Shown: positions 3,001-9,000, counted from the stretch's first letter. The stretch is DNA of 64,000 nucleotides from a bacterium (GCA_046757025.1 JBHHXN010000001.1:59185-123184), one strand, 5' to 3'. Made by a program: the numbers.

Positions 3001-6000
3001 ACAAAAAATTAAAACCATTGTTGAGGAGATGCTGAATTCATGAATTCTGATTTCGATTATTCCAGGCTGCAGGGTAAAAAGGCGCTGATAACCGGCGGAC
3101 TGGGTTTTATCGGCAGCAACATCGCTCACCGCTGTGTCGAGCTGGGTGCTCGCGTCACCATTCTGGATGCGTGCCTCGAACCGTACGGCTGGAACTTCAC
3201 CAACATCGAAGAGATTCGCAAAGATGTGGAATTCGTCAAAGGCGATGTTCGCAACCGAAATTTGTTGTTTGAATTGGTGGAGGACAAAGACCTGGTCTTT
3301 CACATGGCCGCGCAGGTAGGACGCGAAATTTCCCTCGAGAGTCCGGAGCTGGACGTGGAAATCAACTGCACCGGCACCATCAATCTGCTGGAAGCATGCC
3401 GAAAAAATCGCCACGGAGTGAAAGTGATTTTTGCAGGGTCACGCGGGCAAATCGGCGAGCCGATTTATTTCCCGGTTGATGAAGATCACCCGCAGAACCC
3501 TACCGATGTTTACGGCATCAATAAAGTCGCCGGGGAGCAGTATCTGTTTCTGTACAGCAAGATCTACTCGTTTCCGGCGGTTTCCCTGCGCTTGAACAAC
3601 GTTTACGGACCGCGCTGCCAGATGCACGCCGGCTTTTACGGTATTCTCAACTGGTTTATGGCCAATGCCATGACCGGTAAAACCATCACGGTTTACGGCG
3701 AAGGCCAGCAAACCCGTGATTACATCTACGTGGATGACGTGGTGGACGCTTTCGTTCGAGTGGCTATTTCGGATAAAACCAACGGCGAGGTCTATTTTGT
3801 GGGCTCCGGCGTGGAAACCGTCTTTCTCGACATGGTCAACGAAGTCATTCGGGCCGTGGGAAAAGGGGAAAAAGTACACATCCCGTTTCCGGAGCTGCGC
3901 GATAAAATCGACATCAAACGCTTTGTGGTCACGTATGAAAAGATTCACGACACCGTGGGCTGGCAGCCGCAGTTCGATTTGCGGCGCGGAGTGGAACAAA
4001 CCGCACAATATTATCAGAAGCGGTTAAAAGACTATTTGAACCGGCAGTCGGAGAGTGGACATGTCTGAATTGGACTCAATGACTCTTTCTTCAAAAAAGA
4101 AAAACGTGCACGAACAAGCTGCCATTGATCTGTCCATCATCATTCCGAGCTTTAATTCAAAAAAGACCATCCGCCATACCCTGAAAGCGCTGTGCGAGCA
4201 AACCACGCAATTCGAATATGAGATCATCGTGGTGGACAGCTCAAACGACGGTTCTGAGAAAATCATTGAACGCGAGTTTCCTCAGGTCAAATTGATCAGG
4301 CTGCGCAAGCAGACCTATCCCGGCACCGGCCGCAATCTGGGCGTTCGAAATGCGCGCGGTCGTTTTGTGGCGTTCACTGACGCCGATTGTTTGCCGGACA
4401 CCGATTGGGTGGAACGAATTATTCAGACTTTTTCTGAAAGGCAAACCGAGGCCGTTGGCGGCTGCTTGATCAATGGCTATCGCTGGAGTCTCACCGCCTG
4501 GGTTGGGCATTTGATCGAATTTAATGAATGGACTGAAACCACGCCGGCGGGGTTTGTGACCAACATTCCCAGCGCTAATCTCGCTTACCAGCGGCAGGCT
4601 TTCACCAAATACGACGAGTACTTTCCCGACTATCTGGGCTCGGAAGATACCATTCTAAATTGGCAAATGCAAAAGAAGGGCGCCCGGCTTTATTTCGATC
4701 CCAAAATCCGGTTGGTGCATCTGAACCGCTCGGCTCTGGGTAAACTGTTCAAACACCAGTACATGCTGGGCCGGTGGTCTGCAGAAGCCCGACGGCAGTT
4801 CGACCTGCCGGGCAATTTTTTGGTAAAACACCGTTTACTGGTTTTTCTGCTGCCATTTATCCGCTGGCTGCGAGCGTTTTTGCGCCTGGCAAGTAAAGAC
4901 CTGCCAAAGCTCCTAATTTTTGTACTGGTCACCCCGCTGTATATTCCCGCGGCTTATGCCTGGAGCGTGGGATTTGTTTCTAAAAGAAAACTGACCTATT
5001 CGAAAACGGTTAATCAAGCTGTTACGATATTAGAAGAAAATGAATGATATACAGGGAGAATGTGTAAACCATGGCTAAAAAAGTTTTGATCACCGGAGGA
5101 TCGGGATTTTTAGGGAGGCATATCGTAGAAAGGTTGCTGGCGGAGGGCTACAAAATCACGGCCCTCGCCCGGCGTTCGAATGTCGCCCGGCATTTGCAAG
5201 ACCCCGCTATCGATCTGGTCATCGGGGACATTCGCGATCCGGCGTGCGTGGAGCGCGCGGTTCAGGGCGTGGATTTTATCGTGCACGCGGCAGCCACCAT
5301 GCGAGGCGCCTGGGAAGACTTTTTGAAAACCAACGTCCAGGCTACCGAGACGCTCATTCGCTCCGCCATCCAGAACAAAGTCAAGCGATTTATTTACATC
5401 AGCTCGGTGAGCGTCTATCCGCACGCTTCCATGCAAAACGGTACCGCCTTTCAGGAAGAATCGCCGTACGAGCAGGAAGAGCACACGAACTTCTATTCAA
5501 AATCAAAAATCGAGGCGGAAAAGGTGGTTTTGAAATACGTGCGGGAATCCAACCTACCGGCGGTAATTTTACGCCCTGGCGCTATTTACGGGCCGGCCGG
5601 CAATATTTTCCCGGCGACCCTGGGTCTGGGAATGGGAGAAAGCCGACTGCTGGTCATCGGCGACGCCGACACCCATCTTCCGCTCAGTTATGTGGAAAAT
5701 GTCGTGGACGCCATCGTGCGATCCTTTAAAGCCAAAAACGCCCTGGGCGAATGTTTCAATCTGGTGGAGGATCGTTCGTTGACCCGCAATGAATACGTTC
5801 AAGCTATTCGAACAAAAGCCAATCCCCGACTCAGAGTGTTGCGTTTTCCTCTCTGGTTCATGAACGGTTTGAAATTCGCCCTTAAAACGGCATTTCGATT
5901 GCTTGGCAAAAAAGCGCCTCTGAGTGCGTTGAATTTGAAGCTGTATTGTTCGTCGGTCAAATATTCAAACGAAAAATACAAGCAGGTTTTTGGCGGCACG

Positions 6001-9000
6001 CCTTTTGTGGATTTTGACGACAGCATCGTGAAAACCATGCAGTGGTACCGAAAATCGCGCACACCCAAACGAGCGACCGGTTTCGAAAACGGCAAAGTGG
6101 TGGTGCCTGCCACAAAAAAATTGAACGTGGGCGTGGTGGGCTGCGGCAACATCGCCAACGTCCACCTGATGTTTTTAAAGAAATTTGAAAACGTCGGCAA
6201 TATCACCGTGGCCGATCCGAAGGAAGCTGCGCTCAAAAACACCAGTAAAAAATTCAAGATTTCCAGAACCTACCACAGTTACCGAGAGATGTTTCAGCAG
6301 GAGCAGCTCGATGTGGTGCACATTCTGACGCCGCCGCAATTCCATGCCGAAATTGCCGCAGAGGCCGCCAAACAAGGGCTGCACATTCTGGTGGAAAAAC
6401 CCATGGCGCTGGACGCCAGTCAGGCAGAGGGGATGGCGCTGGCGGCCCGTGAAAATCAGGTGAAACTGTGCGTGGTGCACAACCATCTTTTCGATAAGGT
6501 GATGATCAAGGCGCGGGAAATTCTGGCTCAGGACTTACTGGGGAGAATCACTTACATAGAAAGCTGGTATGGCACCCAGTACGGCGCCTTTGCACCGCCG
6601 TTCGATCCGGAAAAATACTGGGGCTACGGTTTGCCGGGCGGTTTGTATCAGGATTATCTTCCGCATGCGCTTTACGTGCTGCTGGACGTGCTCGGCGAAG
6701 CCCGGGTGAAGCAGGTCCTGGCCAATTACGTGGGCGGCGTGCCCGGAGTGGAAACCGATGAACTCAAGGTGCTTTTTGAGCGTGAGGGCAAAATCGGCCT
6801 GCTGAATCTGTCTCTGTCTTCAGCCCCGCGCTATCAGTTCATGAATATTTACGGCACCCAGGCTACGTTGAAAATCGACTTTTTAAACAAAGTGACTTTT
6901 CTGGACAAAGAAATTGCCGGCGTTCCCAAAACCTTCAATCGCGCCATCTCCGCGTGGAAACGAGGGCGCTTGCTGGCGGGTGCGGCATTTAAAAACACAT
7001 TTAAAATGGCCAGGGTGCAGCAAAACCTGTTCGAAGGTACCGATAAAATTATTCGCCTGTTCTACCGCAGTATCCTGCTCGGCGAGCCCGGACCCGTGTC
7101 CGCTCAGGAAGGACTGCAAGTCATGAACATCATGGACGAGATCTGGTCGAAGATGAAAACAGAAAAAGTCGAATCAGAAGATTTGCAAACGGTGTCATAA
7201 GCGGATGATTTCTCGAGCCACACTGCTGTTGATGACCGGACAAGTCGTTTTTCTTTTCTCTGGCTTTTTGATCAATTCCGGCCTGGCCCGCATCCTGAAG
7301 CCCGTGGATTACGGTACGTTTGGGCTGGTGATGTCCATCCTGGTCATCGTGGAATTGTTCGTAATCACCGGCATTCCGGAGGCCATTCAAAAGTACGGCG
7401 GTGAGCGCCCACAAGCCATGGCGAAGTTGATTTCCAAAACCCTGCCCTGGCAAATGGTGTATGCCTTCTGCCTGTTTGGCGTGTTCTGGCTGGCGGCACC
7501 GGTTTTGGCCCGAACCTTCGGGCATTCTGAGCTAACCTTTTTCTTGCGCATTGCGAGCGTGGATATCGTCATCTACGGTTTGTACAAGTACTATTTGGGC
7601 GTGCAGAACGGTCTGCATCGCTTTGTGCAGTACACTATTCTGGGGATCATTTATTCGCTTTCCAAACTGGCGGCTATTTTCGGACTGGTCTGGCTGGGGT
7701 TTTCCATAGCTGGCGCGCTGGTGGGAAACATGCTGGGCTCGCTTATGGCTTTGGTCCTGGCGTTGTTTTTTTCGCGGGTAAAAAAAACCGATGCCGGGCT
7801 GGAGGATATTCCACTCGTGGCTTTTGTAGCGCAAAATGTTCTGTATTTCGTCGGCTTAAATCTGTTTTTTTCATTGGACCTCTGGTTTGTAAAATATTAT
7901 CTTCCGGGCAAAAGCGTCGGTTTGTATGTCTCCGCTGGCGTTCTGGCCAAGTTGACTTATTTGATTTCGGTGGCGTTGTCGGCGGTTCTGCTGCCATCCA
8001 TTGCCCGTTCCATCAAAATTAAAGACGACAAACGTACGCGCGAGCTCATTCAGGATTCGCTGCGCTATCTGGTGATCTTTCTGGTGCTGGTCAACATCGT
8101 GATCACCACCAATTCGGCCGGCATCGTTCAGCTATTTTTTGGCGCCGAATACCTCGACGCGGCGCCGATTTTGAGTATTTTAGCGGTGGCGCTGTCCCTG
8201 CTAACCCTGATGGCGGTGATCAACACCATGATGATCGCCAACGAGCAGATGCGCGCCAGCCTGGTGATGATTCTGTCGCTGATCGCGCTGGACGCGGTTT
8301 TGAATCGCATCCTGGTGCCGCGCTTCGGGCTGCAGGGTGCGGCTTTGGCCACTTCGGCGGTTGGAGTGCTGGGCGCCATTTGGGGCGGTCTGTACGTTTT
8401 CGATGAATTCAAAACCGTACTATTTTCGAAATCGGGTTTGCGGCTGACCGGCATCACTTTGCTGATTTTAGTACTATCAAAATGGCTCGTCCCGGTCGGC
8501 ATCGATTTCTTCATCAAAACCGGGTTGACCGGTGGCGTTTATCTTGCGCTTTTGTGGCTCACGAAAGAAATTAACCCTGTTGACCTGCGCCGTTTGAAAG
8601 AATCCATTGGCCTGTCAAAAACCTGATTTCTGGGATGCTGGAAAATCAATCAAAAACCAAATTAAAAAATCGTTTAATCGTTATCTGGCTGCTGGGTTGT
8701 CTGGCCGTCGGCGGTTTTTTGCGCTTATACAATTTAGGTGGTCCCAGCGTCTGGGTGGACGAACTGAACCACTTTTACGCCGGCAAATCACTGCTGGAAA
8801 ACGGCACGCCGGCGCTGCCTTCCGGCGAGCTCTACAGCCGGGCTTTGCTCTATTCAAAAATGGTGGCTTATTCATTTAAGCTGTTCGAGATCAATGAATT
8901 CAGTTTACGGCTGCCCAGTGCACTTTTCGGTCTGTTGTGCATCCTGCTGGTTTACTTCGTCGCCCGCCGGTTTTTTGGCACCACGCCGGCGCTGTTGTCG

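Follow-up and report, generated by a model that had tools for sequence, protein, structure and literature searches.

A widespread SDR-Gfo/Idh/MocA fusion protein from a bacterial glycan locus, a candidate two-cofactor sugar-tailoring pair

Introduction

Sugar and cyclitol hydroxyls can be inverted by two enzymes in turn, the first oxidising and the second reducing with NAD(P)H, as in DprE1/DprE2, the decaprenyl-phospho-ribose 2′-epimerase, and IolG/IolW, which convert myo- to scyllo-inositol. DprE1 is a flavoenzyme with a lipid-linked substrate. IolG and IolW divide their reactions between NAD+ and NADPH, both belong to the Gfo family and both act on a free cyclitol. Neither pair is fused. The present analysis concerns a single protein of 709 residues in which an extended short-chain dehydrogenase/reductase (SDR) domain is joined to a Gfo/Idh/MocA domain. 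It is encoded in a 64,000-nucleotide stretch of bacterial DNA (GCA_046757025.1, JBHHXN010000001.1:59185-123184), referred to throughout as the window.

A precedent closer to this protein is the KL49 capsule locus of Acinetobacter baumannii. On the basis of genetics, structures and docking, its Gfo/Idh/MocA protein ElaA has been proposed to oxidise CMP-Leg5,7Ac2 at C8, after which the SDR ElaC would return hydride to the 8-keto intermediate, giving the 8-epimer (PMC13656337). No literature on the SDR-Gfo fusion itself was found; the search returned general papers on two-step epimerases, with ElaABC as the close precedent.

The fusion is a soluble redox module with two active sites and belongs to a polysaccharide pathway. 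It is an uncharacterised but widespread, generically annotated and fairly ordinary sugar-tailoring redox pair. The preferred reading, held tentatively and with slightly less than even confidence, is that the Gfo half would oxidise a sugar hydroxyl with NAD+ and the SDR half would reduce the product with NADPH, with net inversion.

The fusion protein

The open reading frame (ORF) is preceded by a Shine-Dalgarno-like GGGAGA about 10 nt 5′ of its ATG and is translated without an internal stop. The same 709-residue sequence is public as P0001, ‘MAG: SDR family NAD(P)-dependent oxidoreductase [bacterium]’ (MAG, metagenome-assembled genome), with sources in NCBI and a Logan assembly. The single ORF reported in the first-pass annotation of this DNA is therefore confirmed. 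That an assembly error or frameshift has joined two genes is scarcely conceivable, since the identical ORF comes from two sources and 83 homologues have the SDR and Gfo domains in this order, joined by a linker that is conserved and structured. Other lineages do have Gfo and SDR as split gene pairs, and one relative, P0113, looks like a stand-alone Gfo protein. The latter candidate was rejected: its N-terminus is linker sequence of the fusion, so that it is probably a truncated gene call.

Three Pfam domains are present, every one over its curated cut-off. Epimerase (PF01370) covers residues 5-227 (E 4e-41; 141.5 bits vs a cut-off of 20.9), GFO_IDH_MocA (PF01408) residues 351-469 (E 8e-24; 85 bits vs 24) and GFO_IDH_MocA_C3 (PF22725) residues 480-600 (E 7e-8; 33 bits vs 27). 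No NCBIfam model reaches its cut-off on the fusion, and database sources give generic names only. The complete extended-SDR domain described in the first pass, with GxxGxxG and YxxxK motifs, is borne out by GGSGFLG, YSKSK and the Epimerase match. For the Gfo/Idh/MocA domain the EKP motif and the intactness of the domain hold, but the Rossmann motif, GCGNIA, is of the form GxGxxA and not the GxGxxG that had been given.

The AlphaFold2 (AF2) model, built from an alignment of 48 relatives, is confident over the whole length, with a predicted local distance difference test score (pLDDT) of 92.2 and a predicted template modelling score (pTM) of 0.86. This suggests that the relative placement of the two domains is fixed. 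No solved structure spanning both domains was found with Foldseek (TM-score relative to the query ≤0.41). The fusion has no transmembrane segment, the maximum 19-residue hydropathy being 1.41, and membrane anchoring was dropped for want of a hydrophobic segment.

The SDR half

The Ser-Tyr-Lys catalytic triad of extended SDRs is present in the SDR half as S111, Y142 and K146. In Rossmann folds and SDRs generally, an Arg at the end of β2 goes with NADP(H) and an Asp with NAD(H); the epimerases and dehydratases that retain NAD+ have the Asp. The fusion has Arg34 at this position, and the SDR half is predicted to prefer NADP(H). The motif RPGAIYGP is a reductase/3β-HSD-type version of RxxNxYGP. 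Its general form, RPGxIYGP, is family-wide in about 175 sequences of all arrangements, and the five commonest residues listed at position 171 are A, T, Q, L and I, with Asn not among them.

The profiles rank in a similar direction. HpnA scores 133 bits and OleD 123 (122.7), followed by Pfam 3Beta_HSD (113 bits, residues 6-218), RmlB (83) and GalE (61). The HpnA and OleD models both span residues 4-329, and both are far under their cut-offs (367.65 and 580). The name of the OleD model is 2-alkyl-3-oxoalkanoate reductase. An identity with HpnA or OleD was dropped because of these scores and because the neighbouring genes encode glycosyltransferases and flippases, not hopanoid or olefin enzymes. 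From the best NCBIfam hits, RPGxIYGP and the missing dehydratase residues described below, the SDR half is predicted to be of reductase type.

In fold comparisons, the SDR half lies closest to 4-epimerases of nucleoside diphosphate (NDP) sugars, namely Mth375 (31.6), PelX (31.3) and WbgU (30.7), and Foldseek agrees. Cinnamoyl-CoA reductase (28.9) and Gox2253 (28.6) score slightly lower. The fold, which is similar to that of GalE, thus favours a nucleotide-sugar-like substrate, whereas the sequence fingerprints favour a reductase role.

The first-pass annotation had proposed a 4,6-dehydratase or epimerase acting with a WbpB-like 3-dehydrogenase to make a keto- or amino-sugar precursor. In its full form, this explanation has the SDR half as a 4,6-dehydratase/4-epimerase and the Gfo half as a WbpB/WlbA-like 3-dehydrogenase, with the keto-sugar then aminated or otherwise tailored. 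RmlB-type dehydratases carry an acid/base Asp or Glu directly behind the catalytic Ser/Thr, e.g. TDE in RmlB. The corresponding positions 113 and 114 of the fusion family are V/L/I/M and S/I/G/A, never acidic among the residues listed for 175 sequences. The SSxSVY motif therefore excludes RmlB/GMD-type 4,6-dehydratase chemistry, and the assignments to RmlB, GMD and LegB were abandoned, the scores also being under cut-off (RmlB TIGR01181, 82.6 bits vs 365.1; TIGR04180, 111 vs 475). A GalE-type NAD+ 4-epimerase was rejected as well. Arg34 replaces the β2 Asp, RPGxIYGP replaces RxxNxYGP, and TIGR01179 reaches 61.3 bits against a cut-off of 262.3. Both canonical features are found in a neighbouring SDR gene of the window (Table 1), whose profile score pattern (HpnA/OleD/3Beta_HSD vs RmlB/GalE) is opposite to that of the SDR half.

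The structural matches to NDP-sugar 4-epimerases do fit this dehydratase/3-dehydrogenase scheme, as does the best NCBIfam match of the Gfo half, the archaeal UDP-GlcNAc 3-dehydrogenase model NF040723 (99.9 bits vs 450, over the N-terminal 146 residues only). Genes for DegT aminotransferases and hexapeptide acetyltransferases also occur in some related loci. In a census of 56 non-redundant loci (±4 genes), however, DegT was near the module in just five, and it had no match among the 29 annotated ORFs of the window; one of the loci with DegT (L005) also has a separate stand-alone Gfo gene. Every specific NCBIfam model is far under its cut-off. The scheme is quite unlikely as a whole: the amino-sugar precursor finds no backing in the DegT counts, and the reductase-type partner speaks against a keto-sugar as the end product.

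The Gfo/Idh/MocA half

Membership of the Gfo/Idh/MocA family is seen in the GxGxxG/A Rossmann motif, the EKP and D/NxxxH motifs and the Pfam scores. At the end of β2 the Gfo half has Asp382, predicted to favour NAD(H). The two halves thus carry opposite cofactor fingerprints, Arg34 being present in 166/175 family members and Asp382 in 175/177. Both sites are under selection, with S111, Y142, K146, R168, E442-K443-P444 and H532 invariant or almost invariant across some 175 sequences.

Family size and gene arrangements

The two domains were described in the first pass as normally separate enzymes, but database searches do not support an unusual architecture. A word-indexed protein-cluster search returned more than 100 clusters of about 700 residues with both domains, with KSB1, Calditrichaeota, Brocadiia, Methylomirabilales, Nitrospiraceae, Thermodesulfobacteriota and Dehalococcoidia as named sources. 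An exhaustive search of 1.84 billion cluster representatives gave 1,055 proteins at E≤1e-30, and the best 150 of these are mostly two-domain proteins of about 700 residues.

Searching the halves separately separated two orders. P0001-P0064 and some others are SDR then Gfo. P0065, P0071, P0075 and most of P0078-P0120 have the Gfo domain first, and identity to the query is 30-37% in either half. The SDR-to-Gfo fusion is carried by the window and by KSB1, Calditrichaceae and Brocadiaceae MAGs, and the Gfo-to-SDR fusion by Acidobacteriota and Xanthomonadales, including cultured Dyella and Lysobacter (D. jiangningensis SBZ 3-12 and L. hankyongensis JCM 18204). The third arrangement, adjacent and often overlapping genes, was found in Arthrospira platensis PCC 7345, Leptolyngbya and a Deltaproteobacteria MAG.

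A scan of one genome per GTDB species yielded 80 loci, which were classified together with the earlier loci and the window by crude ORF calls and domain hidden Markov models. There were 33 Gfo-to-SDR fusions, nine SDR-to-Gfo fusions, 15 adjacent Gfo,SDR pairs, in many of which the stop codon of one gene overlaps the start codon of the next, and a single SDR,Gfo pair. The ORF caller missed the pair in 29 loci; tblastn placed both domains side by side in most of these, including the complete genome of Dyella jiangningensis. The partner SDRs score 190-267 bits against the family SDR profile and the other SDRs of the same loci 42-116, so the pair involves specific subfamilies. When the Gfo domains were placed on a rough neighbour-joining tree, all 83 SDR-to-Gfo fusions fell into a single clade and the arrangement changed at least seven times overall, which indicates that the two fusion orders arose independently. 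The two-step redox coupling suggested in the first pass gains support from these fusions in both orders and from the translationally coupled neighbour genes.

Seven stand-alone relatives of the SDR half form a less biased sample; the source search, made with the SDR half alone, did not list fusions. One of the seven (L088) is an overlapping Gfo,SDR pair within a glycan cluster, and another (L091) lies between two glycosyltransferase genes without an oxidase. In two near-identical loci (L087 and L093), the closest stand-alone SDR (34% identity) stands directly downstream of a 464-residue GMC-family oxidoreductase, which may replace the Gfo partner. The L087/L093 cluster also includes a carrier protein, an acyl-CoA dehydrogenase, an AMP-binding enzyme and a family-2 glycosyltransferase (GT2).

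Apparent triple fusions were rejected. The ORFs of 1,010-1,033 residues (L020, L059, L066) and 904 residues (L010) are start-codon over-extensions in GC-rich DNA, and no extra Pfam domain was found in them. Tandem paralogous SDR-to-Gfo fusions of 697 and 700 residues, with only a 290-residue GT2 between, occur in L002 (10001-15181) and also in L003; Wzx and PMT_2 genes come next. In two reverse-order loci from different lineages (L004 and L005), the two genes after the fusion encode a GT2 of about 400 residues (Glyco_tranf_2_3/Glyco_trans_2_3) and a 262-residue methyltransferase, an arrangement which may be a conserved sub-cassette.

Proposed mechanism

In the first step of the preferred mechanism, the Gfo/Idh/MocA half would oxidise a secondary sugar hydroxyl to a ketone with NAD+. 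The SDR half would then reduce the ketone from the opposite face with NADPH. The net result would be stereoinversion (epimerisation), made effectively irreversible by the use of two different cofactors, and the rare epimer would serve the glycosyltransferases encoded nearby. A nucleotide-activated sugar is the most likely substrate; one that is lipid-linked or has already been transferred is less likely. The nearest Gfo folds allow a guess that C3 is the carbon attacked. We infer which half oxidises and which reduces, the cofactor of each, and that the steps are consecutive on one carbon.

Several observations favour this mechanism. The same SDR and Gfo subfamilies are coupled in three arrangements, fused either way or adjacent, and each half has a conserved active site. 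The cofactor fingerprints are opposite and the SDR half is probably of reductase type. Beside the closest stand-alone SDRs, the oxidising partner appears to have been swapped for a non-homologous GMC oxidoreductase. Neither a conserved aminotransferase nor any other conserved consumer of a keto product is encoded nearby. The ElaA/ElaC precedent and the confident two-domain model add to these points.

Other points weigh against it. The full-length query was used to rank both loci and representatives, so that the co-occurrence of Gfo and SDR looks higher than it is. Three of the seven stand-alone SDR relatives (L089, L090, L092; 29-33% identity to the query) occur in unrelated contexts without any oxidase partner, and one Gfo relative (L013) has no SDR nearby. 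Cofactor preference predicted from single fingerprint residues is fallible, and crystals of ElaA were obtained only with NADP+ (PMC13656337). Fusion is evidence of coupling within a pathway, which is not the same as two steps at one carbon.

This last point leads to the possibility that the halves catalyse different, non-consecutive or otherwise ordered steps and owe their fusion solely to a benefit in stoichiometry or co-expression. In such a case the SDR half might, e.g., be an epimerase or decarboxylase that works on its own with a tightly bound cofactor, and the Gfo half a dehydrogenase/ketoreductase at another carbon. SDRs of the GMD type use tightly bound NADP+, so Arg34 is no proof of a reductase role, and fused enzymes are common in glycan clusters, e.g. 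the GT2+GT4 (family-4 glycosyltransferase) fusion in L005. Independent fusions in both orders and the overlapping start and stop codons of the split forms nevertheless point to tight physical coupling, and a GMC oxidase in the place of Gfo fits a division into oxidase and reductase. This possibility is considered unlikely.

The module in glycan clusters

All annotated genes of the window lie on the + strand, and the first ~55 kb form a single large glycan locus. A glycan-biosynthesis setting, which would suit the nucleotide-sugar tailoring named in the first pass, is thereby upheld, with glycosyltransferases and a flippase as neighbours. Around the fusion there are also two ArnC/AglJ-like GT2 genes and a GT4, and the gene order is syntenic in the closest relatives (L001, L008, L002). 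Coordinates of the main features are collected in Table 1.

Table 1. Features of the fusion gene, its neighbours in the window and two related loci. Positions are nucleotides counted from the first letter of the window unless a locus is named; res, residues of the fusion protein.
Feature	Position	Strand	Details
SDR-Gfo/Idh/MocA fusion protein	5071..7200	+	Complete ORF, ATG start, 709 aa plus stop; identical to public P0001
Extended-SDR domain, res 1-335	5071..6075	+	Rossmann fold and C-terminal substrate subdomain with helix 261-277; Pfam, NCBIfam, AF2 secondary structure
GGSGFLG, res 9-15, dinucleotide-binding motif of SDR half	5095..5115	+	T8, G9, G12, F13, G15 invariant in 48 relatives
Arg34, end of β2, SDR half	5170..5172	+	No acidic residue there; NADP(H)-type fingerprint
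SSVSVY, res 111-116, catalytic Ser region	5401..5418	+	S111 in 172/175, S112 in 161/175
YSKSK, res 142-146, catalytic Tyr and Lys of SDR half	5494..5508	+	Y142 and K146 in 175/175
RPGAIYGP, res 168-175	5572..5595	+	R168 in 175/175
Inter-domain linker, res 336-350	6076..6120	+	Short, partly β-structured; AF2 strands 338-343, pLDDT ~90; R334 nearly invariant
Gfo/Idh/MocA domain, res 351-709	6121..7197	+	Rossmann fold 351-469, β-sheet domain 480-613, C-terminal helices 620-708
GCGNIA, res 357-362, Rossmann motif of Gfo half	6139..6156	+	G357 and G359 in 175/177
Asp382, end of β2, Gfo half	6214..6216	+	NAD(H)-type fingerprint (predicted cofactor)
EKP, res 442-444, with catalytic Lys	6394..6402	+	E 177/177, K 176/177, P 177/177
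DYLPH, res 528-532, D/NxxxH catalytic motif	6652..6666	+	H532 177/177; position 528: D 113, N 64
Canonical NAD+-type NDP-sugar epimerase-like SDR, internal contrast	3040..4068	+	ILDAC, LRLNNVYGP; best solved relative UDP-glucose 4-epimerase 7ys8, E 1.5e-48
MftF/EpsD-like family-2 glycosyltransferase, directly upstream of fusion	4055..5047	+	Same position in L001, L008, L002
Wzx-type flippase, directly downstream of fusion	7205..8626	+	This position in 5 loci of SDR-to-Gfo clade
PMT_2 (ArnT-like GT-C) membrane glycosyltransferase	8635..10332	+	Syntenic in L001, L002, L008 only
DUF1972/GT4 glycosyltransferase resembling Cps2T rhamnosyltransferase	10377..11486	+	
carA	11490-12548	+	Inside glycan locus
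carB	12523-15747	+	Inside glycan locus
Carbamoyltransferases	16229-18055 and 31357-33090	+	
Stand-alone SDR with GMC-family oxidoreductase	L087 3598-5996, L093 3598-5996		

Across the 56 loci, a GT4 is near the module in 41 and at position -1 in 22. Less frequent neighbours are Wzx (17), an MftF-like GT2 (12) and another SDR (11). A conserved partner glycosyltransferase was dropped as a candidate: GT4 and GT2 genes are frequent nearby, but no orthologous group is common to the loci, even at a BLAST E-value of 1e-30. The Gfo-SDR pair, whose arrangements are almost always found in glycan clusters, behaves as a portable tailoring cassette in clusters of varied make-up.

These neighbours bear on a variant in which the same oxidise-reduce chemistry would take place on a polyprenyl-phosphate-sugar, a lipid-linked oligosaccharide or an already transferred sugar, comparable to DprE1/DprE2. 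The families that the SDR half matches with the highest scores (HpnA, OleD, 3β-HSD, SdmB) have lipidic substrates, and helix 261-277 of this half looks amphipathic, as is typical of the lipidic-substrate branch of SDRs. Two ArnC/AglJ/PpgS-like polyprenyl-phosphate glycosyltransferases are encoded in the window, along with two GT-C enzymes of the PMT_2 type. The frequent adjoining GT4, and the GT2 flanked by two paralogous fusions in L002, would also suit this variant. It is distinctly improbable all the same. The proteins structurally closest to each half take nucleotide sugars or free sugars as ligands, the fusion has no transmembrane segment, and no orthologous glycosyltransferase partner is conserved. 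With ArnC/AglJ-like GT2 genes in only 5/56 loci and PMT_2 in 4/56, the polyprenyl-phosphate route was dropped as the general context.

Other genes of the window

Beyond the immediate neighbours, the glycan locus holds carA, carB and carbamoyltransferase genes, and this run is also present behind the cluster in L001. It suggests a dedicated supply of carbamoyl phosphate for O-carbamoylated sugars. PMT_2, Wzy_C, GT4 and Wzx genes occur for a second time at 18720-24541 (+), so that two assembly systems, or a single and very complex repeat unit, seem to be encoded in the window. A 634-residue ORF (26308-28212) without a Pfam match at E≤1e-6 is flanked by a GT4 gene and by the gene for an FrhB/FdhB-like Fe-S protein (24825-26231).

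Further along, a row of three Sulfatase-family proteins, a Heparinase II/III-like protein (41490-44081) and two Phosphodiest-family proteins occupies 35332-48832 (+). The three Sulfatase-family proteins have N-terminal extensions of about 140-255 residues. At 50872-53508 (+), an 878-residue protein combines an ATP sulfurylase (PUA_2 and ATP-sulfurylase domains) with a Phosphodiest/alkaline-phosphatase-superfamily domain, an unusual architecture beside polysaccharide genes. The sulfatase row and the ATP sulfurylase hint at a sulfated, glycosaminoglycan-like exopolysaccharide.

Significance

If the proposed inversion mechanism is right, the annotation ‘NAD-dependent epimerase/dehydratase family protein’ hides a distinct route to rare sugars. 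Hundreds of protein clusters would share this route, with sources in KSB1, Calditrichaceae, Acidobacteriota, Xanthomonadales, Cyanobacteria, Planctomycetota and other groups. The fusion would conveniently serve as a biocatalyst where sugars are to be epimerised irreversibly, and as a marker to predict unusual monosaccharides in uncultured bacteria, and the mechanism proposed for ElaA/ElaC would gain independent support. If the inversion mechanism is wrong, the fusion is simply another fused pair of sugar-tailoring dehydrogenases. For the specialist, the fusion in both orders and the size of the family are useful rather than surprising.

A bolder and improbable extension is that the Gfo-SDR pair, fused or split, forms a widespread, unrecognised class of sugar epimerases with two sites and two cofactors (NAD+ for oxidation, NADPH for reduction). 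Such enzymes would install a rare epimer, e.g. a C3- or C2-inverted hexose, in the surface glycans of many mostly uncultured phyla. They would perhaps act after glycosyl transfer on a lipid-linked intermediate, like DprE1/DprE2, as a portable ‘glycosyltransferase plus stereoinverter’ cassette.

Comparison with known systems

Similar to the fusion, ElaA/ElaC combine a Gfo dehydrogenase and an SDR reductase co-encoded in a surface-glycan locus, with a proposed inversion of a hydroxyl via a keto intermediate. They differ in being separate proteins with a CMP-nonulosonate substrate, encoded beside the CMP-transferase ElaB and legionaminic acid genes. No Pfam families of CMP-transferases or legionaminic acid synthesis were found among the 29 window ORFs scanned, and the 60 best-ranked solved relatives of the Gfo half include no ElaA entry.

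The resemblance to WbpB, WlbA and GnnA is more distant. The Gfo half is 19% identical to WlbA and, as noted above, its score against the NF040723 model is far under the cut-off. WbpB works with the aminotransferase WbpE (in the GnnA system, GnnB), of the DegT family, whereas DegT is no conserved neighbour of the fusion module. The 4-epimerases GalE, PelX and WbgU have a single site, hold NAD+ with the β2 Asp and carry RxxNxYGP, in contrast to the Arg and RPGxIYGP of the fusion family. SDRs of the HpnA, OleD and 3β-HSD/NSDHL types, which include the ketoreductase named in the OleD model, provide the top profiles for the SDR half and share its β2 Arg and RPxxxYGP.

The oxidising half of the fusion is an NAD-type Gfo domain and not an FAD oxidase as in DprE1/DprE2, and polyprenyl-phosphate machinery is not conserved with the module. 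Among the systems compared, the fusion would best be classed within the two-enzyme oxidise-and-reduce sugar epimerases.

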